In this document: positions 5,793 to 62,334 of the stretch, one piece after another | Layout of the letters: each line of letters starts with the position of its first letter | Position numbering within the stretch: the stretch's first letter is position 1 | DNA from: Deltaproteobacteria bacterium | Lineage (GTDB): Bacteria; UBA10199; JACPAL01; GCA-016699445 | NCBI GenBank assembly: GCA_016699445.1 | Contig: CP064976.1 | Location: 2,222,619-2,286,618, forward strand | Direction: 5' to 3' | Length of the DNA stretch: 64,000 nucleotides | Position numbers and translations under genes: made by a program | Notes under the pieces: generated by a model | Told to the model about the DNA's origin: nothing | Seen by the model: the letters and a program-made list of their open reading frames with translations, nothing else | The model's database searches: none

Positions 5793-7007
5793 TCATGCTT
5801 TCTCCTCAGGTGGTAAATGCCAAGGCTGTATGTTCATTCCAAGAAAGGGATAAGGATTTTCAAGAGGGACCATGAGGTAAAACTGGTTTGCTTTCTTCCC
5901 TAATTCTTTTTTGGCTTTCTCGAGTTGTTTCAACGTATCTTGAGTGATGGTGCGTGTACTTTTGATTTCATAAACGTCCCAGAGTGTTTGATTTTGGACC
6001 ATCAGATCAATTTCCAACGACGGCGTCTTGAGATAATAGTGTGGAGGCATTTCCCCTTGGCTCGTCCAATGTTTGATCAGATTAGTCACGACCAAGGTTT
6101 CAAAAAGAGGCCCAAACTGTGGAGAGCCTGCGATGAGTGAGGGATCCCGAAACCCCATTAAATAACAGGCAAGACCGACATCCATAAAATACATCTTGGG
6201 TGACTTCCGGATCCGTGACGAAATATTTTCATAAAAGGGTTCCACAAGATGGACTTGATAGGTTTGCACGAGAAGATTCAGCCAGCGCTGAGCGGTAGAA
6301 GGAGAGATGTTGGCGTCTCTGGCAAGATCACTGACGTTAAGGATTTGCCCAGTGCGGATAGCACACAATCTCACAAAACGTTCAAAGGAAAGAAGGTCAG
6401 CTACTTGTGCCAAAGAACGGATATCTCTCTCGAGATATGTATTCAAATAACTTCGATGCCAATCCGTAGGAAGGATATTTTGATCCCTCCATAATTCCGG
6501 AAAAAAACCTCGAAATAAAATTTGGGATAACGTGTCTTCCTGATGCCATTCTAAATCAATGGATGCGGAAATTTCTTTAACCGTAAGGGGATAAAGTGTG
6601 ATCAACCCAACACGTCCAGCCAAAGACTGAGTTACTTGTTCCATCATTAAAAAATTCTGGGAACCCGTCAGGATATACTGACCCTTTTCATCACGTTTTG
6701 CGTCGATACGACTTTGGAGATAGCTGGTCAGGTCAGGAACATTTTGGAATTCGTCAAAAATTACCGGAGGAGGGTAGCGATCCAAAAAGCTTTTGGGATC
6801 TTGCAGTACTTGCGCTCTCAGATCCAGGTCTTCAAGAAGGACATAATGATGAGTCTTGCAGTGCTCTTTGATAAAAGAGGTCTTTCCGACTTGTCGAGCC
6901 CCTGTCAGGATAATAGCGGGAAAAGACTTGAGAAAACGATCAAAAACACCCTCAAATTGCCTCGTAAACATTTGAAAAATAATAATATATGCAAATTGAT
7001 TATTCAA
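5793..7007 (-). CDS. AAA+ ATPase with DUF4143-type C-terminal domain
   Basis: Walker A GARQVGKTS near N-terminus; ~400 aa architecture typical of the ATPase/DUF4143 family; true start may be an internal Met. Confidence 0.7.
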   Translation of the reverse strand: MNNQFAYIIIFQMFTRQFEGVFDRFLKSFPAIILTGARQVGKTSFIKEHCKTHHYVLLEDLDLRAQVLQDPKSFLDRYPPPVIFDEFQNVPDLTSYLQSRIDAKRDEKGQYILTGSQNFLMMEQVTQSLAGRVGLITLYPLTVKEISASIDLEWHQEDTLSQILFRGFFPELWRDQNILPTDWHRSYLNTYLERDIRSLAQVADLLSFERFVRLCAIRTGQILNVSDLARDANISPSTAQRWLNLLVQTYQVHLVEPFYENISSRIRKSPKMYFMDVGLACYLMGFRDPSLIAGSPQFGPLFETLVVTNLIKHWTSQGEMPPHYYLKTPSLEIDLMVQNQTLWDVYEIKSTRTITQDTLKQLEKAKKELGKKANQFYLMVPLENPYPFLGMNIQPWHLPPEEKA

Positions 7008-7024
7008 TAATTAATTTGCATGAA

Positions 7025-7714
7025 TTATTTATCCGCCACGATTAAATGCGAAATACCACCCGTTTGTGCGGTAATTTTGATGTTCTTAAAGCCTGTTTGT
7101 TCTAATAATTTTCGGTACTCTTCCGTCGTGTAAAATTTCCGCACGGAATCGCGCAAATGTTCATAAGCCGACTTATTCTTAGACACTAAGGATCCTAATA
7201 CTGGAATGACAACTTCCGCGTAGGTGATGTTGAAAAGCTTCGGGAGAAGCTCCGTGGGCTTGAAGAATTCTAAGACCACGAGACGTCCGCCGGGTTTTAG
7301 CCATTCGTAAATATTCTGGAGTGCGAGGGGATTGTCTCCCACATTGCGCATTCCATAAGCCACCATCGCACCATCATAAGAAGAGCGGGGGATATCCAAG
7401 GCCAGTATATCCCCAATCTGAATTTGAATCTGCTTGCGTTCTTCTGGCGTCAAAAGGGCTTCACCTTTTTTGAGCATGTTTTCAGAAAAATCCACAGCGG
7501 TGATCTGAGTCATGGGATTGGTTTCCAAAAGTGTTTTGGAGAGAGCCAAAGTCCCGGCACAGAGATCCAGGATTTTCTGAAATTTTTTCGAATCAGAAAA
7601 TTCTTTCATCCCTTGCCGCCGCCACCGACGGTCGACTTGAAAAGAAAGCAGCGAATTCAACAAATCATATTGAGGCGCGATGGAGTCAAAAAGTTTCTGG
7701 ATGTGTTCGGACAT
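7025..7714 (-). CDS. ubiE: Demethylmenaquinone/ubiquinone C-methyltransferase UbiE/MenG
   Basis: 229 aa class I SAM methyltransferase with UbiE-type motifs (LDLCAGTL, VAYGMRNV). Confidence 0.85.
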   Translation of the reverse strand: MSEHIQKLFDSIAPQYDLLNSLLSFQVDRRWRRQGMKEFSDSKKFQKILDLCAGTLALSKTLLETNPMTQITAVDFSENMLKKGEALLTPEERKQIQIQIGDILALDIPRSSYDGAMVAYGMRNVGDNPLALQNIYEWLKPGGRLVVLEFFKPTELLPKLFNITYAEVVIPVLGSLVSKNKSAYEHLRDSVRKFYTTEEYRKLLEQTGFKNIKITAQTGGISHLIVADK

Positions 7715-7746: not shown

Positions 7747-9810
7747 CTATCTTCCATTAGGTCTTGGAAATGGTCCGGCATCTGCCGCAAAACCTATACG
7801 TGTCGTTTCAGCTCTGAGTAATGCTACTCTCATTTGTCTGGCACGAAAAGCGTCTGGATGCTTGGCTTCTGCTAAATCATCAGGTTTGAAATGTTTTACG
7901 AGTGCGGCAAAAGCTGGACGGACTCCCAATGGTGAATAGCCAAACATATTATGAGGAGATCGAAATCCTGTAAGATCACGAGGTATATCGGGTGAAGGCA
8001 CAGCACCCACATGGAAATTATTAGCCATCATGATGCGTTCAGCATCAGGAATCTTATCATCTCTGACATGCATGCCAGCGATATTACGCCGTGGAATGTA
8101 TTCATTGGGCACGAAAAGCGCTCCCTTCCGACGAAGAGGCGCATAAGGTGAAGGGAAAGGAAATGAAGAGATTCGTGTGCCTGAATCAAATAAGGCATTA
8201 CTTCTTCCTCGTTTGATATTAGTTTTCATTATTTCATAAATCGCTGAAGGATCTTTGCGACTTAAAAATCCTCCTGTTGTATTCAATAAATGCCCTCTCA
8301 TCACAGGAACAAAATTAAATATTTTTTCGGCGATGATAGAGTCTGGTTCAAGACCGAAAAGATATAAAGAACCAATGATGCCACAATAATCAAAAGCTCC
8401 TGTGTGATCCCAGGCTGAAATATTCCCTTGGGAAGGTTGTCGTTGTTGATCATGTCCTGAAAAAAGAAGATCAGCTCCTAGGATATTTTCGATTCCTTCG
8501 GGAACTCGATGCCTAAACATAAAATCTTTATCTGATTCACTTCCAATGATTCGGATTCCTGAGTAAGCATTGACAAGCATGGGTAGCGCCCATCGATTCG
8601 CTATCTGATGGTCATACTCTTGCTGAGTCAGTTTGCCATTTCTCAAATCGCTAATAAGATGTCGAGGGTGAGATGTGAGCTCATATAATAACTCCAGTGA
8701 CTGCATTCCCGTAGGCCCTTGATCGATGCGGTACGCTTGAGTTCTGGAAAGAAAAGTTGTGATGGGAATTTGAATATCCCATTTTTTAAGTATTTTTTGA
8801 GCGGCTTCATGTAAGTTCCAAAGTGCATTAAAACTTTTTTCTTCTCGTTTTTTTCGTTCATTTTCACGAGCGTTTTTATCTCCACCAATCATGGTTTGAT
8901 TATAGGCTATGTAGTTTTCAGTGAGAGATTTGTAAGCATTTCGAGCTACTGTAAACTCATCACATTCTTGAGACGTAGCTCTGTCTTTAAATTTGAGAAA
9001 AACATTGTCGTAAACAGTCAGCTGCCATTCGAGCTCAATATTTTCTATTTTGAGATGAAGCGGAAGTGCTTCTTGCCAAAGCTTATACTCTCTTTCAAAT
9101 GAGTTTTCTTGAGTACTAGATGGTGAAGCAAAAAATAATTCACGATAATCTTCATTAGCTTCCAACGCTTGAGCGTATAAGCCCGAGAGTTTGTCTTGTA
9201 TCTCTTGTGGTAAAACTGCCATGACGCGATCGTAAGCTGCTTCACTCCATTCAAGATCCGCTGCATGAAAACGTTCATAAGACGCCCGTCTTTCAGCTGT
9301 TTCAATGTGTGAAGGAATCGCTTCATAAACAACTTTTTCTTCAACAAGTTTTCTAACGGCTGCAGGATCGGTGACCAGATGGGCAGGAGGGGGTGGGGAT
9401 TTAGGAAATTCGCGAATCAAGCGAGCTCCTAAATACCCTAAAACTGTAGAACTTTTTCTTCCCAAGGTATCAATCGCTTCAACTCCTGGAGCTTCACTCA
9501 CAGAAACATTCAAAGCTTCTGCAATATTTTTATTAAAAATAGGAGCCAAAGAAGGGTGATAACTATGAGGTTGAAGCGTCGTAAAAAAGTCTCGTGCTTC
9601 AGGGATGGTTTGAGGAGGCGTTGATGACAATCCCACTAGATTTTGATCCAAAGATTTTAGCTCTTGATGTAAGTACTGAGCGATAGCCATTATTGGCGCT
9701 TCGCTCAGTCTATCTGTTTTCTGTTGGGCTAAAAAATCACGAAAATTAAGTGTGGATAAAAAATGGCTCGTGGCAAAAGTCAGGGCTTGGTTTGTTGAAG
9801 GGGAAATCAT
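7747..9810 (-). CDS. Hypothetical protein, 687 aa, no recognised domain; polar uncharged N-terminus
   Basis: Long ORF, 28-nt spacing to upstream gene, N-terminus MISPSTNQALTFATS. Confidence 0.6.
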   Translation of the reverse strand: MISPSTNQALTFATSHFLSTLNFRDFLAQQKTDRLSEAPIMAIAQYLHQELKSLDQNLVGLSSTPPQTIPEARDFFTTLQPHSYHPSLAPIFNKNIAEALNVSVSEAPGVEAIDTLGRKSSTVLGYLGARLIREFPKSPPPPAHLVTDPAAVRKLVEEKVVYEAIPSHIETAERRASYERFHAADLEWSEAAYDRVMAVLPQEIQDKLSGLYAQALEANEDYRELFFASPSSTQENSFEREYKLWQEALPLHLKIENIELEWQLTVYDNVFLKFKDRATSQECDEFTVARNAYKSLTENYIAYNQTMIGGDKNARENERKKREEKSFNALWNLHEAAQKILKKWDIQIPITTFLSRTQAYRIDQGPTGMQSLELLYELTSHPRHLISDLRNGKLTQQEYDHQIANRWALPMLVNAYSGIRIIGSESDKDFMFRHRVPEGIENILGADLLFSGHDQQRQPSQGNISAWDHTGAFDYCGIIGSLYLFGLEPDSIIAEKIFNFVPVMRGHLLNTTGGFLSRKDPSAIYEIMKTNIKRGRSNALFDSGTRISSFPFPSPYAPLRRKGALFVPNEYIPRRNIAGMHVRDDKIPDAERIMMANNFHVGAVPSPDIPRDLTGFRSPHNMFGYSPLGVRPAFAALVKHFKPDDLAEAKHPDAFRARQMRVALLRAETTRIGFAADAGPFPRPNGR

Positions 9811-9838
9811 AAAATCCTCATTTTTATAGTTTTAGTTT

Positions 9839-11647
9839 TTATGCGGCTACTTGAAGAGGTATCGACTTATCGTATTCATACTTTTTCACAAGTTTAGAGA
9901 CTTCAAATAGAAGTTGTTGGATAGCCGCTTCATCTTTTTGTGAAGAGGTCAGATGTCTTTTCATTATTGATAGCAATCGTCGTTTCATTTCTTCTCGATC
10001 ATCTTTTGCTTTTTGAGGAGGGATAGCTCGGATGCGAGCAATGATAGTGAAATAACGTTCTTCTTCTGAAGTAAGTTTGGTTATTTCATCTTCACTTATT
10101 TCTGTATTGAGAGCCGATGACCATTGAGTGGCGAGATTTGCAAGATACTGATCTGCAGGGCTGTAAGCACGTATAAGTGCATGGACTTTATCTATGATTT
10201 CTTGATCGGGAGTGTCTGCTGTTACATAAAAACCACCCGTCTGACGAAAATCAATAGTTCCTCCCGTAATGATAGGCTGAATGAATGGAAAAGTGTCTGT
10301 GAATTTTGGATCAATCGTAGTGCCTCCTAAAATATCAATGACAGAAATAAATACAGCTTTATTCATTTTTGCAGAAGTAGCTTTTGCAAGTTTAATTAAG
10401 CCAAAAATATTATCATAACGTTCAGGATGTTCTAATTTTACCACATTGTCATACATCGTGGGTATATCTAGAGTACCATTGTCTCGATAAACACGTGGAG
10501 CTCGTCCTCCTTGAACAAAAACGGCTGGCTCAATACCGAGTTTTTCAACGTTGTTTACAGTTTCATTAAAAGCTTCGGTTTGTGAGTCTTTGTTAGTGTT
10601 ATCACCATTCTGTTTAATCGCTGGTGGGAGAGCTAATACATCCATTAACCAAGAAAATAGAATCATTTTAGCTGCACGATTATTTCTAAAATTACTAATA
10701 TTTGCCATGAATCGTATTAAAGGACGAAGCGCAAATAAAGTGTAATTCGTCCACATCGTATGTCCATAAAGAGCATGAAAGATAGGTGTTCCTTTTGAAA
10801 CGTTTATTAAATTATCGAAACCCTGAGATGTCATACTCATCTTGTAGATTCGTGCTTGTCTTTGAGCCCAATAACCTAAAGCGTACCCAATGGCTTGTGT
10901 AAACTCAGGTGTGGCTTTTGCTTTACCTCCCATGAAAACTGTAGCGATATTGACAACAGTTTGAACAAATCCTTCCGCATGGACAGACGTGCGTCTAGCA
11001 AGTCCGAAAATTGTAGAAGCAGTATTAAGAAGTCCTGCATAGAAAGCTTTTTCAGAAGGAATTCTTTCTACACCCTCTCCATAGCGAGGCATGTTATTTT
11101 CTAACAAGTCTTGATGTTCAAACTCTTTAGGAACATCAGCCCCCAAAACTCCCAGGGCATTATGCTCAAACCTTTCCCAAGCATCCATTGTCAGCATCGC
11201 TCCTGCCGCCATTTGATTTTTGATGATAGCGTTTTCAACTCTATTGCTGTGATCTAAGGCTGCTAATGTAGAACCTAAAACGGCAGCAGCTGCCATTTGA
11301 GCTGGGTGAGAACCATAAGCATAAGCTATAAAAGGCATTAGCAAAGCTCTCCAGGGACTTAATTTCGAGTCCATTCTTCCAAATCGTTCGTTCCAATAAG
11401 CGAGTGCAGAACTTCTTTCTGGATTCATTTGCTTTCTTAAATCATCGGGCAGGATGGGACGAAATCCTCTGGCTAAGAGTCTGAGAACGGGTACCGTATA
11501 AGTAAGAGTCATAAGAGCATCAAGTGCGTAATTCGTTCCTGTCAAAACAGGTGCTGCTTGAGCTAAAGCTTCAAGGGGTTGAGTGTAGGCCGCTATTCCA
11601 ACAGCACCAGGAAGTACGCGAGCTGTAATAGAGTTTGGAGATGTCAT
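9839..11647 (-). CDS. Hypothetical protein, 602 aa, no recognised domain; polar uncharged N-terminus
   Basis: Long ORF, N-terminus MTSPNSITARVLPGAVGIA; AT-rich 200-bp upstream spacer. Confidence 0.6.
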   Translation of the reverse strand: MTSPNSITARVLPGAVGIAAYTQPLEALAQAAPVLTGTNYALDALMTLTYTVPVLRLLARGFRPILPDDLRKQMNPERSSALAYWNERFGRMDSKLSPWRALLMPFIAYAYGSHPAQMAAAAVLGSTLAALDHSNRVENAIIKNQMAAGAMLTMDAWERFEHNALGVLGADVPKEFEHQDLLENNMPRYGEGVERIPSEKAFYAGLLNTASTIFGLARRTSVHAEGFVQTVVNIATVFMGGKAKATPEFTQAIGYALGYWAQRQARIYKMSMTSQGFDNLINVSKGTPIFHALYGHTMWTNYTLFALRPLIRFMANISNFRNNRAAKMILFSWLMDVLALPPAIKQNGDNTNKDSQTEAFNETVNNVEKLGIEPAVFVQGGRAPRVYRDNGTLDIPTMYDNVVKLEHPERYDNIFGLIKLAKATSAKMNKAVFISVIDILGGTTIDPKFTDTFPFIQPIITGGTIDFRQTGGFYVTADTPDQEIIDKVHALIRAYSPADQYLANLATQWSSALNTEISEDEITKLTSEEERYFTIIARIRAIPPQKAKDDREEMKRRLLSIMKRHLTSSQKDEAAIQQLLFEVSKLVKKYEYDKSIPLQVAA

Positions 11648-11850
11648 GATAAAATTCCCTTTCTATTAAGATTCTTCGTAATTCTTTTAAAGAAGTTGTG
11701 TTTTGTGTGAGAAAAAAATGAGATAATAAAAATTTTGTAAATATTATAGAGGGTTAGGATGAAAATTTTGTTTAAAAAATAAAAGTAAGCCTACGAAAAG
11801 AAAAAAAGATGGTGAGTTGAAGCTGGGACTGTTTGTTCTGAAAAAAACGA

Positions 11851-13548
11851 TTAGTAAAACCGAGTATTATTATTAGCCGCCTGAATTTTTCCTAATGTCA
11901 TCGCTTGCATGCGGATGGCAGCAATTTCTAAATTGCGGGCTGTTTCTGCCGCTGTGTCGCCTTGATAGTCACTTACTTTCAAAATCCCGCAAGGTGCTAT
12001 CATGACCGTTTGGTTTTGTTTAACCCCTTGACGTAAGACTTGTTTGATATTGGTTGGTAAAATTTGGCCTGTACCGCAGATAGCATAGACGACAACATAA
12101 GTATCATTTGAATATTTTTCATTTGTATGTGCTGCAAAATTAAAAGCTCCGGACCGAAAACGTAGAGCTCCAGTTTCTTCATTTCTATCGGGAGTCTCTT
12201 TTCGTTTGCCTTCAGGCATAACCCATACAGTAGCACTTTGATCTCCAGAATTATCCACCCATTGAGACGCTGTTTTTTCTAATTCTAAATAAGCAGCATT
12301 TCCACCTTCTCTATCCAGATAAAAATGAGGAAATGTTCTTATCGTGCTGTCGGCACTCCAAAGATCTCGATTTGCAGGGTGTAAAAAAGGGTTTTTGCCT
12401 AAAACAAGAGATGTCTCCAGTTCTTTTTTAGAAGCAAAAGCCCCAGGCTGAACTCCAAATAATAAAATGGGATCCAGATGAGCTAAGTGATTACTAATGG
12501 CGATAATTTTAGATCCTTTAGCGATCAATTGTTGAATTACTTCCATCAGGTTTAAATTGAGAAAAATAGGGCGCCAATTTTGATGTTGAAGTAAACTTAA
12601 AGACCCAACGCCTAAAAGTTTTTTATAATCGTGACGAGAGGGCGTATTTAGTGTGCTCGATGCCGCTAAAGCGGCAATATGCATAAAATCAGCAATAAGC
12701 GTTGTTAGAGCCCAATGACTATAATAATGTTTGCCTCCAGCCCCACAACTATCTCTAAAAGCCTCAAAAAAAGCATCCGCATCTGTCATCGTATCTCTAT
12801 GAGCAGAGTCTCGAGGAGGTAACTCTCCAAAATAATCGTCAAAGTCTCTTGTACTAATAGGTCCTTGGCTGACATGTTTTAAAAACCGTTTTACATGAGG
12901 GTGGTCTTGAAAAGCTTCGATGCCTCCACGAGCTAATATTTCTTCAGCTACTTTGGGATCTTTAGAGAGTAGTAAATGTGCAAGTTCAAAAGGTGTGTTT
13001 AAAGTGGGGTTTGCTTTTGCTAATTTTAAACTTTGAACGACACTTCTCCACAATCCATGATTAAATGTATGGGGGCTGGTTTGTGTGGGTAATTCCGATA
13101 ACCATTTTTCAGCTTCTGCTTGAATCCCACTAATATCAATAAGACTATCTCGAGAGTATTCAAAAAGCGCTCTTCTAACTTCTTCTTTCTGGCTTAAAGC
13201 TTTGCAAACACCCGCATGATCGGCAATTTCTCTAAGAGCCGACGCGGATTGATGAATATCAGAAGACGTAATAAGCTGACGATGTCGAAGTTTATTATTT
13301 AAGCGTTGTTTTTCAGGAAGATCGGGATGTTTTCTTAGGGTCCGTGTATCGATCGCAGAAACATATTCATTGGTTATTCCTAAAATAGACGACATTGTAT
13401 TGGTATAAGGATGTTTTGTCCCAGGAGTTAGGCGAAACAAATGATCGATCAAATGACTAAGTGCACGTTGGACATCAAGTCCGCTTTGGACACCATCCGC
13501 TAAAGCGGGAGAAAGAAAAACTCGGGTTGGTGCTACTGTTGATATCAT
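11851..13548 (-). CDS. Two-domain protein: unknown N-terminal domain + C-terminal lysophospholipid acyltransferase (PlsC/GPAT-like) domain
   Basis: HX4D motif in IAISNHLAHLDPILL, motif III-like VWVMPEGKRK, motif IV-like TYVVVYAICGTGQILP; paralogous to 15525..17198. Confidence 0.7.
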   Translation of the reverse strand: MISTVAPTRVFLSPALADGVQSGLDVQRALSHLIDHLFRLTPGTKHPYTNTMSSILGITNEYVSAIDTRTLRKHPDLPEKQRLNNKLRHRQLITSSDIHQSASALREIADHAGVCKALSQKEEVRRALFEYSRDSLIDISGIQAEAEKWLSELPTQTSPHTFNHGLWRSVVQSLKLAKANPTLNTPFELAHLLLSKDPKVAEEILARGGIEAFQDHPHVKRFLKHVSQGPISTRDFDDYFGELPPRDSAHRDTMTDADAFFEAFRDSCGAGGKHYYSHWALTTLIADFMHIAALAASSTLNTPSRHDYKKLLGVGSLSLLQHQNWRPIFLNLNLMEVIQQLIAKGSKIIAISNHLAHLDPILLFGVQPGAFASKKELETSLVLGKNPFLHPANRDLWSADSTIRTFPHFYLDREGGNAAYLELEKTASQWVDNSGDQSATVWVMPEGKRKETPDRNEETGALRFRSGAFNFAAHTNEKYSNDTYVVVYAICGTGQILPTNIKQVLRQGVKQNQTVMIAPCGILKVSDYQGDTAAETARNLEIAAIRMQAMTLGKIQAANNNTRFY

Positions 13549-13688
13549 TTAGAAAGCTCTTTTCCAGAAAACTTTTTATTAGTATTACATTGATGTCTTA
13601 AAAGTACGTTTAATCATTATCGACATTATAAATAAAAAAGTTGCCTAATATTTTTTTAAAAACTTTTATCCTTTTTAGATATTTCTCC

Positions 13689-15464
13689 TCATTTATTTCC
13701 TAAATAATAAGCCAATACGGGGGCTAATGAGTGGTAAATCATTTGAAAAGCTACCAGTTGAGAGGCTCGTGTGAATGCCATAGTTGGTTGGCTTCGCAAA
13801 ACTCTTCCGGTAATACCTGATCCTCGTGCATAAGCAATTTCTTGTAGAGCCGCTAGAATGACATAAGGAAGAGCTGCTGCCAAAGCGAAGGTCGCGATAA
13901 GAGCAGTAGGATTATTGAGCGGTTGTAAGAAGATTTCAGTTGCCACAAGGGGTGCTGTGATTCCCAGCGCGGAACGTGAGTCTTGGTACGTTTCTTTTTG
14001 TGGAGATAGAGACATAAGAAGAGAGGTCAAAATTCCTGCGGCTGCAGCCCTTAAAGTTTCATGAGTATTATGAGTCGGTGCTCCTGGGATATGTTGCTGT
14101 AAAAAGGATCCAGCAAAGGCTCCAGATGTCAAACCAACAGCTTCAGAAATTAAGCTTGCAGCTTTTTGGGGTATCGTTGGTAGTATAAGCGGATTTTCTA
14201 TTTGCTCACGAGTGATGAGAAAATGCCCTGGATGTCTTGGGTCGGATCTTTTAATGGTTCGATAACCGGCCAGTTCATGTACAATGCTTCCGTTATGTTC
14301 TTGGACCCACTTAAGAAGTTGAGGCTTGGAAGCATTGACAGCAAAGGTAATTCCATTTTTTCTTTCGGGATTAGCATGGTCTAAGGCAAATTGAAGCATG
14401 TCCATATCTGACGGGGAGTCGGTATACGCAGCAACTGTTTCCAGTTTTAATCCACGTTCTTTAAATAAATCTGAAAGTCTTGTGAGTGCCCGAGCTTTTT
14501 CAACATCATGAAGGTAAACCATTTCTCCTGATAGTTTTTGAGTTTGAGGATCTACGGTAAAACTAGTCCCCATGACATTTTCAGGCGGCAAGCCTAAATC
14601 GCGAGCATGATCTTCAATAAGAGGTTTAGGGGAGGCGGAAACAAGAAGGACAAGATGGCCCGCTTCATAATGCCGCACAATTTCATCACAGAGAAATTCA
14701 CTAATACCTTCTCGTCCATGAAGCCGATGCCAATGAGAGAGACTGGCTCCAATTTTGAGAGGGTCCATATCTTTGATCGTTTCAGCAATGAACTTTTGTA
14801 CTTCTTCACGATTGATATGTCCTTCTCTTACTTCTTTTATCCGGGCTTTAAGTGAGGGGATAAGGATCTTTAAAATCTCTTTCTCCGCACCGGTTTGTTC
14901 TTCTAATGTAGTTTTTTTAAATAAGACTTTGAAGGCAATACGCCCAATCCAATCCATCCATCCTTGTCCTGCTCGAGTCGTTCCATCAACGTCAATCAAA
15001 ACAACTTTTGGTGAGTTATCTTTGTATTTTTCAGGGTGAGTCAGGACATCTCCCAATGAAATAGGGGTCCGATAAGAGGAAGCATTGATGTCGACAATTC
15101 CTCGGATTTTGGCCCTTGCAACAGCGGTTTTCAATAAAATGCCTAGGGTGGTATCATAGGGAATTTTAGTGATAGTTTCTCCAAGTAAAATTTGGAGAGT
15201 GTGTTCTGGTCTCGTTAGTGGTGTTAAAAATTGAGAAGTTGTGTCTGTATTTGGTAAAAAAGTTTTCAGGGCATTAGGGATATATTCTGCAGGAACCCCT
15301 TGAGCCCCAAGTGCTTTAACGGCTGCGGTAATATCATTTTGAGCAAAAGCATCATTAATAATCGGTGTTAAGTTCTCTCTAATATTCGGAGGAAGATGAG
15401 GCATGTAAGCTCTAAAATCAAATATAGAACCTGCTGTGAGAGTGGGTCCTGTAATAGTATTCAT
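13689..15464 (-). CDS. HAD-IB superfamily phosphatase domain protein with hydrophobic C-terminal region
   Basis: Motif I VVLIDVDGTTRAG (DxDGT), motif II LVLLVSASP, motif IV AAYTDSPSDMDM; C-terminal 150 aa hydrophobic. Confidence 0.7.
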   Translation of the reverse strand: MNTITGPTLTAGSIFDFRAYMPHLPPNIRENLTPIINDAFAQNDITAAVKALGAQGVPAEYIPNALKTFLPNTDTTSQFLTPLTRPEHTLQILLGETITKIPYDTTLGILLKTAVARAKIRGIVDINASSYRTPISLGDVLTHPEKYKDNSPKVVLIDVDGTTRAGQGWMDWIGRIAFKVLFKKTTLEEQTGAEKEILKILIPSLKARIKEVREGHINREEVQKFIAETIKDMDPLKIGASLSHWHRLHGREGISEFLCDEIVRHYEAGHLVLLVSASPKPLIEDHARDLGLPPENVMGTSFTVDPQTQKLSGEMVYLHDVEKARALTRLSDLFKERGLKLETVAAYTDSPSDMDMLQFALDHANPERKNGITFAVNASKPQLLKWVQEHNGSIVHELAGYRTIKRSDPRHPGHFLITREQIENPLILPTIPQKAASLISEAVGLTSGAFAGSFLQQHIPGAPTHNTHETLRAAAAGILTSLLMSLSPQKETYQDSRSALGITAPLVATEIFLQPLNNPTALIATFALAAALPYVILAALQEIAYARGSGITGRVLRSQPTMAFTRASQLVAFQMIYHSLAPVLAYYLGNK

Positions 15465-15524
15465 AATTATCCTTTCATGAGTTTCTGTAGTCGCAGGTGA
15501 TTTGTAAAAGTTTCGAATATTTTT

Positions 15525-17198
15525 TTATTTTTTGTTTAGTAGTGAAAAAAGCTGATGATTTCCAGCTGCTTGAACAGCTCCGAGGCTAGCAGCATGTGCT
15601 CTCATTATAGCTCTATGGAGATTATCTGCAGCCTCACGAGGGTTAGCCCCCTCATCAATATGTTCTTGAAGAGGGATGAGCCCATCAAAGCTCACAACAA
15701 CAGGTTGTTTCCTCTGAACGCCTTCTTTCAATAATTGATTTATTTTTGAGGGTAGAGCTTCGGATGTGCCATAGAGAGACACAACAACTACATATGTATT
15801 TCCCTTTTCTCTTTGAACGCGTGCAGCAAAATTAGCAGCTCCATGATGAAAGAAAGATTCACCTACTTCTTGGCCACGTATATCAGAGGTTCGTGACCCT
15901 CCCGGAAACCAGCAAATGGTTTTTCCTTTTTCGATTTGTTTTAAAGCAGCTTGCTCTACTTCTTGATAAGCTTCAGATTTTTTGCTTCGATCTACGGGAA
16001 TATGATTTCCTATGCCTAGAAGAGAATCTTCATGCCATCGAGAAGGGTCTAAGGGGTGATTGAAAGGATTATTTCCAAGTATTGGAGCCTTCCAAAGCTC
16101 TCTTTTAGCTATAAAAACCCCTTTGAAAAGGGCATAGAGTATCAATGCATCGAAGTGACTTCGATGGTTAGAAATGGCAATAATATTGGCCCCATCTTTT
16201 TTTAGCTTTTCTATTTCTAGTAAAACTTCGTGGTTTAAAATAAAAGGCTGCCATTGTAGGTGTTGCATAAGGCTAACAGTCCCCATGCTTAAGAGCCTTT
16301 TATATGAAGTGCCGGATGGATCAATCAAATGACTTCGTGTGGTGAGAGCTCCTACTTGTAAAAAATTAAATACAACTTCGGCTATGCCAAGCCGACTCAA
16401 CGTTGGTACGCCTTCAGGTCCACGACTTCTTTTTATTGCCTCGATAATTTGCTCGGCCTCACTTTTTTCTGGAAAGAAGGGGTTGGCTTCTGGGGGTTCT
16501 AAGGCAAGATAATGAGCGATATCAAAAGGCCCAATAGGACTTTGTTTAGTTTTATGTAAAAGCTTTTCAGCATTGGAAAGACGTAAAATGATCTCTGATA
16601 TTGAGAGTCCTAAAGCACCTGCATAAAGGCTAAGTGTCGAAAGATTTAATTGATTATTAAAAAGCTGATATAAAAGTATGGAAGGCAATCCAATGGCATG
16701 AAGTGCTGATCCCATCTCTCCCCAATAAGCAGCTTGTTTCCATAGGCTGTTAGAAATAGGGGTTGGGATATAAGTCTGACAAAGGCTTTTCCAATACTCC
16801 ACTTCGCGACAGACTTGTGTTACGTTGGTTTTTGTATCTTCTAGGCTATCTTCAAGTGATTTAAGAAGTTCTTTTGAATTGTGTAAGAATACAACTAAGC
16901 TTGGGTAGTTTCCGATTTCTCTTAAGGCATGGGCAACATCTTCAGGTCGAGTCGATCTAAGCATGGCTCTGTGATGAAGATTTTTTTCTGAAGAAGGGTA
17001 TTTCTTCACATATTCTTCCACAGCTTTTGCAATCATAGTTGTAAGCGTTGGAAAAGGATTGTTTTTATTGAGTTCACTGGCTTCAAAAATATGATTGCTA
17101 AGCTGAAATAAGGCCGCTCTTGTATCATCTGTGCATTTGATGCCTTCTTTAAGTGAAGGTGTAAGGGGTAGTCGCGTTTGAGTAGGTGCAACAATCAT
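15525..17198 (-). CDS. Two-domain protein: unknown N-terminal domain + C-terminal lysophospholipid acyltransferase domain (paralog of 11851..13548)
   Basis: HX4D in IAISNHRSHFDALIL, motif III ICWFPGGSRTS, motif IV TYVVVVSLYGTSEALP; N-terminus MIVAPTQTRLPLTPSL parallels MISTVAPTRVFLSPAL. Confidence 0.7.
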   Translation of the reverse strand: MIVAPTQTRLPLTPSLKEGIKCTDDTRAALFQLSNHIFEASELNKNNPFPTLTTMIAKAVEEYVKKYPSSEKNLHHRAMLRSTRPEDVAHALREIGNYPSLVVFLHNSKELLKSLEDSLEDTKTNVTQVCREVEYWKSLCQTYIPTPISNSLWKQAAYWGEMGSALHAIGLPSILLYQLFNNQLNLSTLSLYAGALGLSISEIILRLSNAEKLLHKTKQSPIGPFDIAHYLALEPPEANPFFPEKSEAEQIIEAIKRSRGPEGVPTLSRLGIAEVVFNFLQVGALTTRSHLIDPSGTSYKRLLSMGTVSLMQHLQWQPFILNHEVLLEIEKLKKDGANIIAISNHRSHFDALILYALFKGVFIAKRELWKAPILGNNPFNHPLDPSRWHEDSLLGIGNHIPVDRSKKSEAYQEVEQAALKQIEKGKTICWFPGGSRTSDIRGQEVGESFFHHGAANFAARVQREKGNTYVVVVSLYGTSEALPSKINQLLKEGVQRKQPVVVSFDGLIPLQEHIDEGANPREAADNLHRAIMRAHAASLGAVQAAGNHQLFSLLNKK

Positions 17199-17326
17199 AA
17201 GTTTTTATTATTTCCTAATTATTTACAGTCTTTTATTAAGCATCGTATTGTCTTTTCAAAAGTTGCTAAGTAATTTTGAAAAAAATAAATAAAATCATGG
17301 ATTAGATTATTATCTTCTCATGACGT

Positions 17327-18517
17327 CTAGCATGATTTGCCCGCTGCCCACCCGGACGACCAGGCCCATTGGAAGTTGTAGCCGCCGAGTTCTCCTGTGA
17401 CGTCCAAGACTTCTCCAACAAAAAAAAGTCCTGATATGGATTTTGATTCTAGGGTTTTGGATGAGAAATGGTCAGTGTCGACCCCACCTCGGGTCACTTC
17501 AGCGCGTGCGTAGCCCACTGTTTTTTCGGGAGTCCATGTCCAATGATGAATTTTTTCCACGAGCTCTAGAATTGTTTGATTCGAAATTTCGACAAGCGGT
17601 TTGGAAGGAAATTCAAACACAGTGGCTAAATGCTCTGCCAAGCGGGATGGCCAAAAAATTCCCATGAGAGTTTTAAACGTTTTTTTTTCGCCCTGATTTT
17701 TTTTCTCCAAAAACCATTCTGACAGTTTTTGATTTTGACACCAATCAATCTCAATAGATTCTTTTTGCTTCCAATAGAGTGACGCTTGAAGAGCTGCTGG
17801 ACCGCTTAAACCTTGATGAGTGATGAGTAGGTCGTCTTCAAAATTTTTTGTTTTGGTTCGAATACACACAGGGGTTGAAAGACCTGAAAGCGTTTTCCAT
17901 AAATCCTGAAATTCAGGATTTCCACGAAAACCATCGAGGGCAGGGGATGTGGGGATGATGTTCATGTGAAACTGTTTAGCAATTTCATAGCCAAATCCCG
18001 TGGCTCCAATTTGTGGTAGCGACAGTCCACCCGTCGCGATGACGAGAGTCTCTGAAGAAAAATTTCCCTGTGAGGTTTCTGTTAAAAAATTTTCCGGATC
18101 TTTTTGAATCGAGAGGACTTTTGTCTCCAGAAGTATTTTGACCCCAGCCTGTTCGCATTCATGAAGGAGCATGTTTAAAATATCTTTAGCGGAGTTTTGA
18201 CAAAAAAGTTGTCCGGGTTTTTTCTCCACGTAAGCAATCTTGTGTTTTTGAATCAATTCCAAAAAATGATGAGGGGTATAACGAGAGAGGGCGGATTTGC
18301 AAAAATGAGGATTTTGAGAAACAAAATTTTCAGGAGTCGTGTTGAGATTGGTGAAATTGCACCGACCACCACCTGAAACCAAAATCTTCGCTCCCGCTTT
18401 GGTATTGTGATCGATGACGACAACTTTTCGTCCTCTTTTGGCCGCTTCAATCGCGCAAAAAAGTCCCGCAGCTCCAGCACCGATAATGAGTGTGTCGTAA
18501 TTTTTCTTAATATTCAC
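17327..18517 (-). CDS. FAD-dependent oxidoreductase, HI0933/BaiN-like family
   Basis: N-terminal dinucleotide fold YDTLIIGAGAAGLFCAIEAAKRGRKVVVIDHN and GGGRCNFTN motif. Confidence 0.8.
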   Translation of the reverse strand: MNIKKNYDTLIIGAGAAGLFCAIEAAKRGRKVVVIDHNTKAGAKILVSGGGRCNFTNLNTTPENFVSQNPHFCKSALSRYTPHHFLELIQKHKIAYVEKKPGQLFCQNSAKDILNMLLHECEQAGVKILLETKVLSIQKDPENFLTETSQGNFSSETLVIATGGLSLPQIGATGFGYEIAKQFHMNIIPTSPALDGFRGNPEFQDLWKTLSGLSTPVCIRTKTKNFEDDLLITHQGLSGPAALQASLYWKQKESIEIDWCQNQKLSEWFLEKKNQGEKKTFKTLMGIFWPSRLAEHLATVFEFPSKPLVEISNQTILELVEKIHHWTWTPEKTVGYARAEVTRGGVDTDHFSSKTLESKSISGLFFVGEVLDVTGELGGYNFQWAWSSGWAAGKSC

Positions 18518-19352
18518 CGTGCGGGTTTACAGCATGATCATGTAAATCATTCAAGAATGGAAGAAGGCCGGTTTCCACAGAGAGGTTGGGCATGATTGGT
18601 TGGCCACTAGAATTTTGACAAGTGATGGTGATGACTCCCGAAGTAAGACCACCATCCTGACTTAAAAAAGAAGCTTCAAATACTGCTTTGCCTAGAGGAC
18701 CTCTTTGATTCTGTTCAAATCCTGAAAAAATTAGTGCAGAAAGTGTGATGGTTGCTGGGGTTAAATCTCCAGCTGGGATGAGACCGGATCGTTGAGCTAA
18801 TTGATAGACGAGTGTTGGTATTTGCGCACTATGAGTCTCATTTCCAAAAAAAGCTTGTGCGATAGCCATCAAGTCGGGGTTAAATTTGATTCTAATACTG
18901 AGTTGTCCAGGAGAATCTGGACCAGGGCTGCTGGCGATTTCCGTTGTCACTCTGTATGAAATGGAAGCGCCTACACCTAAAATCAGTGTATCCGTGAATG
19001 AAAAAAGCGTTCCAGCATTTGCTTGATTTGGATCTAAACTCTTCCTGATCAATGAGATCTGTTTGTCACTGTCTTGATGGAGATAATTTATTTTTGAGAT
19101 TCCACCAGCGGTAGATGTGTTCTCTGACCAACCTGCGGGCACTGGAGGTCTTGGTTCTTCGTGAGAGCGGGCGAGTTGATGGTAAATAAATGGAAGGAGC
19201 ACATGTAAAGGATATTCTGTTTCCATTTTTTTATACATACTTGCAACGATGCCATCTGTATGTGCCGATAACGGAGGAAGGTTTAATCCTGTTGTAGGTT
19301 CGTAAGAAGCAGTGTTTAAAAAGCTTGTGACATATGGGGTTATTGTTGCCAT
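18507..19352 (-). CDS. Hypothetical protein, 281 aa; polar uncharged N-terminus
   Basis: ORF with N-terminus MATITPYVTSFLNTASYEPTTG; overlaps the start of the downstream oxidoreductase by 11 nt. Confidence 0.5.
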   Translation of the reverse strand: MATITPYVTSFLNTASYEPTTGLNLPPLSAHTDGIVASMYKKMETEYPLHVLLPFIYHQLARSHEEPRPPVPAGWSENTSTAGGISKINYLHQDSDKQISLIRKSLDPNQANAGTLFSFTDTLILGVGASISYRVTTEIASSPGPDSPGQLSIRIKFNPDLMAIAQAFFGNETHSAQIPTLVYQLAQRSGLIPAGDLTPATITLSALIFSGFEQNQRGPLGKAVFEASFLSQDGGLTSGVITITCQNSSGQPIMPNLSVETGLLPFLNDLHDHAVNPHGEY

Positions 19353-19470: not shown

Positions 19471-20484
19471 ATGAAGAGAATTGATTCTAAACAGGCTCTA
19501 AATATTTGGGAAAGTGATTGGACGTCACTTCGATCTCAATCTCATGAAGCGCGTTGTGAACATTATCCTGATGGGCAGGCGAGCTATGTTGTCATGCGGA
19601 TTGTGAGCTATACCAATGTTTGTGTGGCGGATTGTTCTTATTGCGCCTTCTACCGTCGACCCAATGACGATGGGGCTTATGTCCTTTCGAAGGAAGATAT
19701 TTTTTCTAAAATTGACGGACTTCTAGCTGTTGGTGGGTCGGTGGTGGCTATGGAAGGGGGATTTAATCCCAAGCTTAAGATTGAACATTACGAAGATCTT
19801 TTTGCGTCCGTGCGTAAGCGCTATGGAGATAAGATTGAGATTTATGGGTCTACGATTGTCGAAGTGATTTTCATTGCGAAGAGTTCGCGTATTTCACTGG
19901 AAGAAGCTCTCATCCGTCTCAAAGAAGCTGGATTGCGTTGGATTCCGGGTGGTGGTGCTGAAATTTTAACCGATGCCTGGCGCGCAAAGCTTTCTCCTAA
20001 AAAATATTCGGTGAAAGATTATATTGAAGGCATGCGAGTGGCACAAAAACTTGGACTCGGTACCACAGCGACGATGGTGATTGGTTTTGGTGAAACAGTT
20101 GCCGACCGTATTGAGCATCTCGAACATATCCGTCGTCTTCAAGATGAGACAGGTGGTTTTGCGAGTTTTCTTTTGTGGACCTACCAACCCCTCAACACTC
20201 CCATGGGAGGCTCTCTCACCAGCAATGACGACTATCTTCGCTCAGTCGCCTTAAGCCGTTTGTATTTGGATAACATCCCTGTGATTCGTGCGTCTTTTCT
20301 CACTCAATACGACAAAGGCCCCGAAGCTCTCACTGCCGGTGCTCATGATTTTGATATCCCTCTAGAAGACCAAGTCACCCAACTGGCCGGCGCCAAGATT
20401 GAAGAAAATGTCGATCGTGTGTTGGAGTGGGTAAAGAAGTCTGGGATAACCCCTCAGAAAAGGCTCCCATTTTCTTTGAAATGA
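19471..20484 (+). CDS. Radical SAM menaquinone biosynthesis enzyme, MqnC/MqnE family (futalosine pathway)
   Basis: 337 aa; CxxxCxxC cluster motif in SYTNVCVADCSYCAF. Confidence 0.8.
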   Translation: MKRIDSKQALNIWESDWTSLRSQSHEARCEHYPDGQASYVVMRIVSYTNVCVADCSYCAFYRRPNDDGAYVLSKEDIFSKIDGLLAVGGSVVAMEGGFNPKLKIEHYEDLFASVRKRYGDKIEIYGSTIVEVIFIAKSSRISLEEALIRLKEAGLRWIPGGGAEILTDAWRAKLSPKKYSVKDYIEGMRVAQKLGLGTTATMVIGFGETVADRIEHLEHIRRLQDETGGFASFLLWTYQPLNTPMGGSLTSNDDYLRSVALSRLYLDNIPVIRASFLTQYDKGPEALTAGAHDFDIPLEDQVTQLAGAKIEENVDRVLEWVKKSGITPQKRLPFSLK

Positions 20485-20618: not shown

Positions 20619-21438
20619 ATGTTTCCCTATATAAATATGAATCTTCATTGTTTAAAAATTAAAAGCCAAACCGCCCCTCATAAAACCTTCTTTTTCCTCC
20701 ACGGTATTATGGGACGTGGGAGAAATTGGCAGCGCTTTGCGACAGAGCTAGTTCAGCGAAAACCAGATATCGAAGCGGTATTGGTCGATTTGCGTTTGCA
20801 TGGCGAGTCTCAAGGTTTTGATCCACCGCATACAGTACGAGCTTGTGGTGAAGATGTGGTAGGGGCAATTCATGAATTGCCCTTACAAAATGAAAAAAGT
20901 GATCGTTGGACATTCGTTCGGAGGGAAGGTGGCTCTGGAAGTTGCGCGACTCGCTCCTGATTTACTTTCAGCAATTTGGCTCATTGATTCATTTCCAGGT
21001 TTGTCTGCAAGGCATGGTGATGCTTGGAAAATGATTGAATGGCTTCAAAAAAATGAAGGTCCTTTTACAACACGGACAGAAGTGCTTAAAAAATTAAAAG
21101 AAGCGCAATTTCCCGAAGCCATCGCTGCGTGGATGGCGACCAATCTAGAACCCGAAGGAAAACTTTTAAAATGGATTTTCCCCGTGAAGGGCATCGCGAG
21201 TCTATTAGATGATTACGCCAAAACAGATTTGACCGACACACTCCTCAATCCACCATGTCCTATACATGTCGTGAAGGGGACAAAGTCGCCTTTGATTACG
21301 GATGATTTAATCCAGAAAATCCAACATTCAAAAACCAGATTTCCAATTTCCCTTCACTTCGTCGAAGCCGGACATTGGGTGCATTCTGAAAATCCGAAAG
21401 AATTGCTAAGAATAATGATGTCATCTTTTAAAGGATAA
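20619..21438 (+). pseudogene. Alpha/beta hydrolase, reading frame interrupted by a 28-bp palindromic insertion
   Basis: N-part FFFLHGIMGRGRNW..DLRLHGESQ (frame 0) and C-part KKVIVGHSFGGKVA.. (frame 1, GxSxG nucleophile); deleting 20859-20886 joins ..GEDV to KMKKVIVGHSFGG in frame. Confidence 0.65.
20859..20886. mobile_element. 28-bp palindromic insertion element, copy 1 (one mismatch)
   Basis: GTAGGGGCAATTCATGAATTGCCCTTAC; same element at 25885-25912; exact excision restores the hydrolase frame. Confidence 0.75.
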
Positions 21439-24258: not shown

Positions 24259-24651
24259 TTATTTAGGGCCAATGATTTTAGCATCTGTCTTTTTGAAATC
24301 ACTGTCTAAGGTAAGAATCGGGCAACGCTCTTCCATGGCTAAGGCATAGGCAAAACAGTCACCTAAATTGATGGGGTAAGTCAGGCGGGCTTTAGCTGCT
24401 GTAACTGATTGATTTGTTGAAGGGGGTATAAATTGGATACCTGATGAAAGGATTTCGTCTTTAATTTTGGAGAAGAGTTTGGGCTGCTTGTCCTGAAGAA
24501 GAATGAGGGTTTCAGTGAGGTTGACGGTGCTCATCAGAAGCTCATGTCGATGAGCTTCTAGCTGATCTTCAACCCAGACGGCATGAGTTTCATTTAAAAA
24601 AAGAGCTAAGAGAGCTGAAGTATCAATGACCATATTATTTCCAAAGGTCAT
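24259..24651 (-). CDS. VapC PIN-domain toxin
   Basis: VIDTSALLALF.. and C-terminal LTLDSDFKK PIN motifs; overlaps upstream antitoxin. Confidence 0.75.
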   Translation of the reverse strand: MTFGNNMVIDTSALLALFLNETHAVWVEDQLEAHRHELLMSTVNLTETLILLQDKQPKLFSKIKDEILSSGIQFIPPSTNQSVTAAKARLTYPINLGDCFAYALAMEERCPILTLDSDFKKTDAKIIGPK

Positions 24652-58259: not shown

Positions 58260-58841
58260 TTATTTTAAACAACACTTCTTGTATTTTTTCCCACTGCCGC
58301 AAGGACAAGGATCATTACGGCCCGTCTGATTTTCGTTGATAATAGGCTGAGGTGCTGTGGGAAGGACAGGGGCTTTTTTGAAATATTCTTTCATGTCATC
58401 TTTGGACATGGCGATGACTCTGTCTTTTTCTGATTCAGAAATGGATTGTTGCCACCAGTTGATTCCGGGTCTCATGATTTCCGCAAGGCCTTCCATGTTT
58501 TTGGGAATCTTTTTGCCGGTTTCTTCTTTGTAACGTTCCAAAATAATTTTAGCTAAAATCTCCTGAGCTTTATTGGTTTTCTCATGCTTGTCTTTAGCTT
58601 CTTTGGTGGAAATTTTACGACGCTCCGCAATATCTTTGATGGTGCAATCATAACACATAATGATCGCAACTGGATTTTGTTGAGTGGGTGTCGTGGTTGA
58701 ACCAAACTTGCCTTTGTTGTTACAGACTCCGCAAATACAGCGGCCCCATTTGAGAATTTCACCTTTGATTGATGCTTGTTGCTGGACGATTTTTTGTTGT
58801 TGCATGCGGGCGTAACAAACAGGAATTTTTATAAGGGTCAA
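58260..58841 (-). CDS. SEC-C-motif protein with N-terminal Cys-rich region
   Basis: C-terminal [20 protein letters not shown]; N-terminal CxxC-type clusters ([12 protein letters not shown]). Confidence 0.55.
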
Positions 58842-59686
58842 GAGTTTCGTTTCAAAACAAGGTTGGCGTCTTGGTAACCTTGAAGAATTGAGGCCTTAAT
58901 TTTTTTGAGATTGGTTGTCATGCGTGAAGCGATGGGTTTTTCTTGAGGTTGAATGACTCTTAAGCGTGCGGGAAAGTCATTGGTTTCAATCTTTTCAACA
59001 ATGGTATTGTAGCGTTGGTGTCGAAGGCGAATTTCTTCTGCTAACAATGGAAAAGATTTTTTGTAATAAGCCGGCATCAAATCAATTAATGGAGATTTTT
59101 TTCGATAGCCTTTTGGGCGAGTGAGAAGGACAAAAATTTCTTCACAACCCTCTTCAATTGCCTTTTGGATGGGAATGGCGTCGGACAAACCTCCGTCGAT
59201 ATAAGAATCATTTTCGATGATCACGGGTTGACGATAAGCTATAGGGAGTGCTGCAGAGGCTTTGAGTGCGGGGAGTATCGGATCAGTATGCCCTTCAAAA
59301 TATTTTGGCTTTCCGGTCTTACAATGAGTTGCGACGATATAAAATTGCGTTGAGCTTTCTTGAATGGCTTGAGTGTTGAGAGGCGCTGTATTAGCAAAAA
59401 CCTGATCGATTAAGTAATCTAAATCCATCAGAGAAGAAGATCGCCGGGTGAGATTTCGATAGTTGATAAATCGAGTCCCATGAAGGTGTTCTGTCCAAAT
59501 TTTGGGCAACATATCAAACTGCCGACTTACCAAAAAAGCAGACGTACAAGCCCCTGCCGAAGTCGCCGCAACAACCTCAAACTCCCAAAACCCATTTTCA
59601 ACCAGAGCCATCAAAGCCCCGCAGCTATGAGATCCACGCATCCCACCACCTTCGACAATCAGGGCTCTTTTGGGTTGTTGTTTCAT
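58838..59686 (-). CDS. Patatin-like phospholipase
   Basis: Oxyanion GGGMRG, nucleophile elbow ATSAGA (GxSxG), catalytic Asp in DGGLSD; start at internal Met ([15 protein letters not shown]). Confidence 0.75.
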
Positions 59687-61858: not shown

Positions 61859-62334
61859 ATAGAGACGTTCTCTAAGAATTCTCGACATGAATAAATCTCT
61901 CGATAAATTTTCTTCCCAGCTCTGAGAAATCTTTCATCAGATGTGATAAACGGAATTTTTCGATTCATGGCTACAGCTAGATAGCTACAGTCGTAGATTC
62001 TCTTGAGGTCTAGCCGAGAAGCTAAGTCTGTGGCTGTTTTAAGAACAGAGGCCTGCCATTGAAAGATCAAGTTAGTATGGTAAAAGATATCGATAGCCGT
62101 ATCTCTCTCTAAATGGCTCATTCCCTCTTTTTGTGATTTTTGATGAAGTGCTGAAATAACTTCAAAAAAAACAAGACCAGGTTCAAAAAGATCTATCGAT
62201 TCTTCATCAATTTTATCCCAGAGCTCTAGTGCCGCTTGATGGAGTGGTTCCACTTTAACGAGTGCTGCGATGAAAATATTAGCATCCAAACATATCTCTG
62301 TTGGTACTAAATGCATTTTATCCCCCTTCCTCAC
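61855..62334 (-). CDS. PIN-domain protein (VapC-like toxin)
   Basis: CLDANIFIAAL and C-terminal PFITSDERF motifs; probable start at internal Met MHLVPTE. Confidence 0.65.
   Translation of the reverse strand: MRKGDKMHLVPTEICLDANIFIAALVKVEPLHQAALELWDKIDEESIDLFEPGLVFFEVISALHQKSQKEGMSHLERDTAIDIFYHTNLIFQWQASVLKTATDLASRLDLKRIYDCSYLAVAMNRKIPFITSDERFLRAGKKIYREIYSCREFLENVSI

Follow-up and report, generated by a model that had tools for sequence, protein, structure and literature searches.

Uncharged, threonine- and proline-rich N-terminal leaders on unrelated proteins of an uncultured sludge bacterium: a possible type III-like export signal

A 64 kb stretch of contig CP064976.1 (hereafter, the window) from an uncultured sludge bacterium, whose 2.75 Mb metagenome-assembled genome (MAG) is filed as 'Deltaproteobacteria bacterium', encodes eight proteins that begin with an uncharged, Ser/Thr/Pro-rich peptide (hereafter, the leader). 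The leader is a genuine, non-random feature common to otherwise unrelated proteins. A preliminary description of this DNA had compared these N-termini to type III secretion signals. Judged from the sequences, a secretion signal is plausible and better supported than either paralogy or start-codon context, and we tentatively favour, with somewhat less than even confidence, the reading that the leaders act as a common N-terminal signal for export of the type III kind and are not cleaved off.

Results

Eight proteins share an uncharged leader

All eight open reading frames (ORFs) and their N-terminal peptides were confirmed as the preliminary description had read them. Six of the genes form one co-oriented minus-strand block at 7747-19352 (hereafter, the island), encoding p687 (7747-9810; leader MISPSTNQALTFATS), p602 (9839-11647; MTSPNSITARVLPGA), p565 (11851-13548; MISTVAPTRVFLSPA), p591 (13689-15464; MNTITGPTLTAGSIF), p557 (15525-17198; MIVAPTQTRLPLTPS) and p281 (18507-19352; MATITPYVTSFLNTA). 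The remaining two are p643 (50338-52269, minus strand; MPPPFVITGSPTATVF) and a leucine-rich repeat (LRR) protein with LRR_6/LRR_4 repeats (62700-64000; MTIPATIQTVSPE), which continues past the window end and is the only one of the eight on the plus strand, the other seven being on the minus strand. The start codon of every candidate is the most upstream start in its ORF, and several have a Shine-Dalgarno-like purine run 6-10 nt 5' of it. An assembly artefact at the N-termini was rejected, despite frameshift-split genes elsewhere in the assembly, because an independent Illumina-derived contig (L001; Logan SRR12404947) has the same starts for five candidates. Two 687-aa homologues of p687 (P0003 and P0004) have an 'MI' start as well.

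The leader was defined as residues 2-16 with at most one of D/E/K/R and at least six of S/T/P, and the eight candidates were compared with the 48 other non-overlapping window ORFs, each of at least 100 aa. All eight candidates satisfied this definition (0-1 charged residues and 6-8 Ser/Thr/Pro), as did 1 of the 48 other ORFs. The near-absence of charge reported for the first residues was borne out in all eight. None of the approximately 33 recognised-family proteins in the window has such a leader, the closest being a thiolase (2 charged, 6 S/T/P) and fumarase alpha (1 charged, 5 S/T/P). The same composition on housekeeping proteins, which had been named as a finding that would speak against secretion, was therefore not seen within the window. 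Taken together, the pattern was found at 9 of 56 N-termini, compared with 1.3-2.6% of internal 15-mers in window proteins; the binomial P of ~1e-5 is only indicative and not a formal test, because the thresholds were set post hoc with the data in view and the cases had been preselected by the preliminary description.

Relative to other window N-termini, the leaders are enriched in Thr (20% vs 5.6%) and Pro (13% vs 3.9%) and also in Ser, and are depleted in Lys (0% vs 9%), Asp+Glu (1.6% vs 8.2%) and Leu. The sole other ORF with a leader (1554-2126) has a TTG start and encodes 190 aa with the uncharged start MGSSSSTNPAGLLLG. It is Thr/Ser/Cys-rich throughout, lies between the acyl-CoA dehydrogenase and mutase genes, has no family match and may not be a real gene.

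The leaders are not classical Sec signals, as had been noted before. A simple hydropathy scan (not SignalP) detected no Sec-type hydrophobic core within the first 40 residues of any of the eight, the best 10-residue Kyte-Doolittle means being 0.85-1.97 in the candidates and 2.3-3.6 in the evident signal peptides of the window. A twin arginine or an early Cys, indicative of Tat or lipoprotein signals, was found in none of the eight. Other known export routes rely on Sec/Tat leaders, place the signal at the C-terminus (types I, IVB and IX) or, as in type VI, lack a linear signal. Since these do not fit, a type III-like signal is the best fit among known signals.

Resemblance to type III secretion signals

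Type III signals are enriched in Thr, Ser, Pro, polar residues and coil, and depleted in acidic residues, basic residues and Leu (Arnold et al. 2009, PMC2669295), and the composition of the leaders agrees with these features. The agreement with the export rules described for Pseudomonas syringae (PMC3338616) is partial. These rules call for no acidic residue among positions 1-12, for Pro or an aliphatic side chain at residue 3 or 4, and for a Ser content of 10% or more over residues 1-50. The first 12 residues are acid-free in 8/8 candidates and the residue at position 3 or 4 conforms in 7/8, whereas the Ser content is reached by only 2/8.

Leaders are retained in related genomes

The p687 sequence is that of QQR80097.1 (IPJ69_12305; 100% identity), and NCBI currently places 'Deltaproteobacteria bacterium' under Myxococcota. 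Among GTDB genomes (one per species), the nearest MqnC genes were from MAGs titled uncultured Pseudomonadota, Myxococcota or Deltaproteobacteria, with identities to the window protein of 84% (L002), 73-75% (L003-L005) and 62-63% (L006-L007). The GC content of these MAGs is 47-58%, and that of the window is ~42%. A chlamydial origin, which the futalosine pathway, the LRR protein and the leaders had prompted us to consider, was rejected given these nearest genomes and the 'Deltaproteobacteria bacterium' assignment of QQR80097.1. As the organism is not chlamydia-like, a type III system cannot be taken for granted. A literature search revealed nothing relevant on the lineage or on a type III system in it.

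Homologues of the island proteins adjoin mqnC in L002, L004, L005 and a distant relative locus (L019; JGI 3300013121). In relatives with 52-58% GC, p687-family homologues start with MALPADSISTPPTGALQF, MAAITPSSSIMPLSRAVSPPL and MTTISSPLGTWLNASAQ and the L002 homologue of p591 with MNTPSLLTLTHYPPQAPFPT; an island acyltransferase homologue in a relative starts with MPLLLPLSPNVAAQLTS. When a relaxed leader criterion was applied to nine related loci, 10 of 104 ORFs passed, 7 of which are homologues of island proteins. A 658-aa L003 protein starts with MPPPLVVDRPSPPYQPVFP, much like the MPPPFVITGSPTATVFP of p643, and is unrelated to it, with no similarity elsewhere. The protein p281 is a weak member of the set, because its L002 orthologue begins with the charged MDLAQLDYTRAF.

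When 1.84 billion cluster representatives were searched exhaustively with HMMER, only 21 members of the p687 family were recovered. Across 20 of these, at 17-60% identity, residues 2-16 contain 9% charged residues (24% in the rest of the protein) and 35% S/T/P (16% in the rest). There are four exceptions to the uncharged leader among the 20, two of which (P0008 and P0012) look like truncated gene calls since their alignment begins only at profile position 110-120. The retention of leader composition over large sequence distances and a 15-point GC range points to selection acting on the peptide. A short motif, L-x-L-[ST]-P, is also conserved in the acyltransferase leaders (RLPLTPSL, VFLSPAL, YLSPRL and LPLSP).

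The distribution of these proteins is very narrow. A word-indexed protein search returned only 1-3 near relatives even with the 20-sequence profile, and a metagenome scan matched a single 2.3 kb fragment. A genome scan with a 2-sequence acyltransferase alignment gave no match. One p687-family member (P0021; L022 3008-7402) is 1464 aa long, ~500 residues longer than its closest relatives, and by eye a GFSLG-type motif resembling the one in serine hydrolases can be seen in its extra C-terminal stretch. Directly upstream lies the gene for a 971-aa PF01553 acyltransferase.

Predicted lipid enzymes behind the leaders

The protein p687 has a helical-bundle N-terminal half followed by a divergent PlsC/GPAT-fold acyltransferase domain. 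It is too divergent for PF01553 and has no Pfam match, and its profile matched Thermotoga maritima PlsC with E=4e-6. The motifs WDH469TGAFD (HX4D) and FDSG544TR546 are present, with H469 and G544-T545-R546 invariant in 20 family sequences. A confident AlphaFold model built with the 20-sequence alignment had a predicted local distance difference test (pLDDT) score of 85.8 and a predicted template modelling (pTM) score of 0.89, with residues 1-7 disordered; AF2 with only three sequences gave a pLDDT of 44. Foldseek against the PDB returned weak matches only.

In p565 and p557, an N-terminal extension of ~320 residues precedes a PF01553 acyltransferase domain, with the motifs NHLAHLD and MPEGKR in the former and NHRSHFD and FPGGSR in the latter. 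An orthologue of p565 (45% identical) adjoins MqnC in L002, and p557 has homologues in L005 and L019. By motif and profile, p687, p557 and p565 are PlsC/GPAT-fold acyltransferases behind long helical N-domains. The p591 protein contains a HAD phosphatase domain (PF12710, E=9e-16) with the DxDxT nucleophile motif (D158VDGT) and a hydrophobic C-terminal segment (~519-544), and is thus a HAD phosphatase with a hydrophobic tail.

No recognisable domain was detected in p602, p643 or p281. A partial p602 homologue is encoded directly upstream of the p687 homologue in L004, and the leader of p643 is followed by a single hydrophobic segment (~35-65). A PDB sequence search with p602, p591 and p643 gave no significant match.

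The island is interrupted by a gene for an HI0933-like FAD (flavin adenine dinucleotide) flavoprotein (17327-18517, minus strand), whose start is overlapped by the p281 stop. The N-terminus of the flavoprotein (MNIKKNYD) is of the ordinary charged type, and the protein does not belong to the leader set; an orthologue (67% identical) is found at the same position in L002.

Genomic context and strain variation of the island

The island is bounded downstream by the MenG/UbiE methyltransferase gene (7025-7714, minus strand), 32 bp past p687 and on the same strand, and upstream by the divergently oriented MqnC gene of the futalosine pathway (19471-20484, plus strand). Its genes are on the same strand as menG-ubiX-ubiA and are separated by intergenic gaps of 28-203 bp. 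An island between MqnC and MenG is also present in L002, L004, L005 and L019 (L019 2698-19351). This placement holds in relatives down to 73% MqnC identity, and the island content varies among them. A giant Ser/Thr kinase (999-1135 aa) is encoded in the islands of L005 and L019, the HAD gene is absent from L019, and the island of relatives includes either an LRR of eukaryote type or a large Ser/Thr kinase. The gene order mqnC / MqnA-region genes / dnaK / dnaJ / hydrolase is retained in L004 (titled Myxococcota).

The island lies within a futalosine/menaquinone gene set with the order ubiA-ubiX-(AAA_14)-menG, island, mqnC ... mqnA (window 4378-26952). The AAA_14/DUF4143 ATPase gene occurs near a p687-family gene in two very different contexts (window 5793-7007; L020 13010-14221 and L021 5967-7178), being one gene away from p687 in the window and immediately adjoining the p687-family gene in L020 and L021. 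A patatin gene is also found near the p687-family gene in L020 and L021.

Strain-level variation was evaluated by comparing the window with L001. The MenG protein is identical between the two strains and the island proteins are not, with 2 amino-acid differences in p591, 9 in p557, 19 in p687, 23 in p565 and 154 in p602 (74.5% identity; dS 0.92). The first 58 residues of p602 are identical, and the gene (window 9839-11647; L001 6695-8500) has diverged though the flanking genes are 96-100% identical at the protein level. This looks like an allele replacement by recombination with a breakpoint just past the N-terminal region. For p687, 6 of the 19 changes fall at residues 4-15; 13 point substitutions in codons 3-15, with no indel, have left the leader acid-free in both strains. 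The ratio of nonsynonymous to synonymous substitution rates (dN/dS) is 0.16-0.63 for the island genes, compared with 0 for menG and 0.07 for the AAA_14 ATPase gene, which indicates relaxed constraint and no demonstrable positive selection.

Other features of the window

Housekeeping genes in the window include those for acyl-CoA dehydrogenase, methylmalonyl-CoA mutase, UbiA/UbiX/MenG, MqnC, MqnA, DnaK, L-aspartate oxidase, EF-P, fumarase, a TRAP transporter and thiolase. Three genes appear as pairs of overlapping ORFs in different reading frames, i.e., those for DnaJ (30026-31110; ORFs from 30026 and 30190), an alpha/beta hydrolase (20619-21438; 20619 and 20872) and an acidic repeat protein (35840-37505; 35840 and 36822), reflecting either long-read indel errors or pseudogenes. 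The DnaJ of L004 is intact (375 aa). The acidic repeat protein (8 K+R vs 50 D+E; FEI[FY]GQ-type repeats and a Gly/Ser-rich tail) adjoins a 600-aa protein (33935-35737) in which Gln, Pro, Thr and Ala are highly abundant and which lacks a signal peptide and any Pfam/NCBIfam match.

By eye, PIN-type toxin-like ORFs are located at 24259-24651, 33495-33932 and 61855-62334, at least one of which has an adjoining small ORF (~62335-62600) that is a possible antitoxin, and a Pfam-annotated PIN gene occurs in L020. A patatin-like phospholipase with an ordinary charged N-terminus is encoded at 58838-59707, and its gene is followed by that for a small protein with a C-terminal SEC-C motif (58260-58841).

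Discussion

A possible export signal of the type III kind

Under the reading that we favour, the leaders would be carried by lineage-specific proteins of a bacterium labelled as deltaproteobacterial or Myxococcota, would be recognised through composition and disorder and not through sequence, and would direct their carriers to an injectisome-type machine whose genes would lie elsewhere in the 2.75 Mb genome. Delivery would be into or onto a target cell, where the acyltransferase and phosphatase set could remodel glycerolipids. The target could be a cell of a eukaryotic host; it could also be a prey bacterium, since Myxococcota possess type III systems that, according to the summary in PMC10469934, contribute to killing prey on contact. 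In Myxococcus xanthus, the T3SS* serves contact-dependent predation together with the Kil Tad-like system (Thiery et al. 2022, cited in PMC10469934). The very narrow distribution, the faster protein change than in neighbouring genes, the one putative allele replacement (p602) and the LRR or large kinase in the island of relatives suggest an effector-like profile.

Several observations weigh against export of this kind. Neither the 64 kb window nor the related loci L001-L007 and L019-L022, for which ~200 kb of related-lineage DNA was inspected, showed a gene for type III or any other dedicated secretion. A small acidic chaperone gene often lies beside an effector gene, though not universally; such small ORFs are absent between the island genes, where the gaps of at most 203 bp leave no room for them. 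The serine content mostly falls short, as described above, and every dN/dS value is <1. The L-x-L-[ST]-P motif of the acyltransferase leaders appears to be more conserved than a purely compositional signal requires. The island is tightly packed, co-oriented with the menaquinone genes and kept in position, in the manner of an ordinary metabolic operon, and its three acyltransferases and one phosphatase might just as well serve an unusual lipid pathway of the cell itself. Composition-based type III predictors also score many proteins as positive in genomes that have no such system (PMC2669295), and these false positives count against our reading as well.

Alternative explanations for the leaders

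The preliminary description had offered a paralogous family or a start-codon context effect as other causes of the shared N-termini, and neither was upheld. If the leaders were alike through gene duplication, this would suit p557 and p565, the one paralogous pair in an all-against-all BLASTP of the candidates (30% identity over full length, E=4e-74), whose leaders have M1, I2, T8, R9, L12, P14 and L16 in common, and p687 is of the same catalytic fold. However, the BLASTP gave no other significant pair, the p687 profile aligned with the p557/p565 profile at an hhalign probability of only 14%, and the LRR, HAD, p602, p643 and p281 proteins are unrelated. Paralogy thus covers 2/8 and was ruled out as a general cause, being barely credible for the set as a whole. 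As the protein bodies are unrelated save for this pair, the leader was not inherited along with a domain. An effect at the nucleotide level, by which selection for a G-poor, unstructured 5' coding region would yield the amino-acid bias as a by-product of translation initiation, finds support in the first 45 coding nt of the candidates, with 32% C and 12% G vs 19% and 20% in other genes. The candidate 5' ends are C-rich and G-poor because Thr, Pro, Ala and Ser all have NCN codons. A shared DNA module or AT-rich start context was ruled out, as GC over the first 60 nt is 0.37-0.50 (genome ~0.42) and no nucleotide motif common to the candidate 5' ends was found. With the bias also absent from housekeeping genes of the same genome, restricted to lineage-specific proteins and holding in relatives at 52-58% GC, we consider a nucleotide effect very improbable.

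A stronger contender, though still rather unlikely in our estimation, is that the proteins are not exported at all and make up a glycerolipid pathway of the cytoplasm or inner membrane that was passed on together with the menaquinone cluster, the leaders being flexible tails without a targeting role. Such a pathway would make sense of three PlsC/GPAT-fold enzymes, a HAD phosphatase and a flavoprotein, the acyltransferases and the phosphatase having intact catalytic motifs. The shared strand with menG-ubiX-ubiA, the short gaps, the retained MqnC-MenG placement, the dN/dS values, the absence of secretion genes from the loci examined and the known predictor false positives (PMC2669295) all agree with it. 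It does not explain why the same leader is found on the unrelated LRR, p643 and p602 proteins, two of them 30-45 kb away, nor the consistent charge avoidance across homologues at 17-60% identity that would not be expected of unconstrained tails. Disordered tails are usually charge-rich. Moreover, the flavoprotein, clearly an ordinary enzyme inside the island, is without a leader, and for housekeeping lipid enzymes these families are exceptionally uncommon. The leader might instead serve an undescribed non-injectisome route of the lineage, e.g., vesicle loading or a contact-dependent killing apparatus. The evidence for a shared, conserved, non-Sec leader applies equally here, and both the lack of type III genes in ~200 kb of lineage DNA and the partly conserved L-x-L-[ST]-P of one family would be accommodated, but a candidate machine for such a route was not seen either. 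As known non-type-III systems use C-terminal, Sec/Tat or no linear signals, and the composition already fits a known signal class (PMC2669295), we regard a route of this sort as improbable, if less so than a nucleotide effect.

Implications

If the leaders are indeed type III-like export signals, they would mark delivered proteins in an unstudied lineage for which metagenomes are the only source, point to a way of life directed at a host or prey, and extend type III-like leaders to new cargo families, with PlsC-fold glycerolipid acyltransferases joining the effector repertoire. A further-reaching proposal is that the lineage injects into a host or prey a new effector class, comprising PlsC/GPAT acyltransferases fused to helical bundles, a membrane-anchored HAD phosphatase, LRRs and, in relatives, giant kinases, from a conserved but fast-changing island in the menaquinone cluster; this we hold to be doubtful, and less probable than the export signal itself. 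We know of no identified substrates of Myxococcota type III systems, and the defined set of leader-bearing proteins provides concrete candidates. Should the genome be without an injectisome, the leaders would be a clean example of misleading composition-based prediction, or a pointer to an undescribed export route.

Comparison with known systems

Like the type III signals of animal pathogens and chlamydiae (EffectiveT3, PMC2669295), the leaders occupy the first 15-25 residues, are coil or disordered and rich in Thr/Pro/Ser, are poor in charge and Leu, would be uncleaved, and occur without sequence conservation on unrelated proteins. They differ in that the candidates have no adjoining chaperone genes and belong to a lineage without known effectors, in whose examined loci no injectisome gene was seen. 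The Hop rules of P. syringae (PMC3338616) are matched in the acid and position-3/4 rules, whereas Thr and Pro rather than Ser carry the bias here.

The p643 protein is similar to chlamydial Inc proteins in that a hydrophobic segment comes after its type III-like leader, and this leader may resemble the start of IncA. It has a single hydrophobic stretch of ~25-30 residues and not a bilobed domain of 40-60 residues, and shows no homology to Inc proteins. An Inc-like reading of p643 and p591 was not supported, as neither has a bilobed domain and the only strong segment of p591 is C-terminal (519-544).

The M. xanthus T3SS* offers a type III machine in the phylum to which NCBI assigns the MAG and one depositor a relative. 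A predatory use would suit lipid-modifying cargo. Its substrates are not known to us. As in the known PlsC/GPAT/tafazzin (LPLAT) acyltransferases, HX4D and F-x-x-G-x-R-type motifs are present in p557, p565 and p687; unlike those enzymes, all three carry N-terminal helical extensions of 320-440 residues and begin with an uncharged leader.

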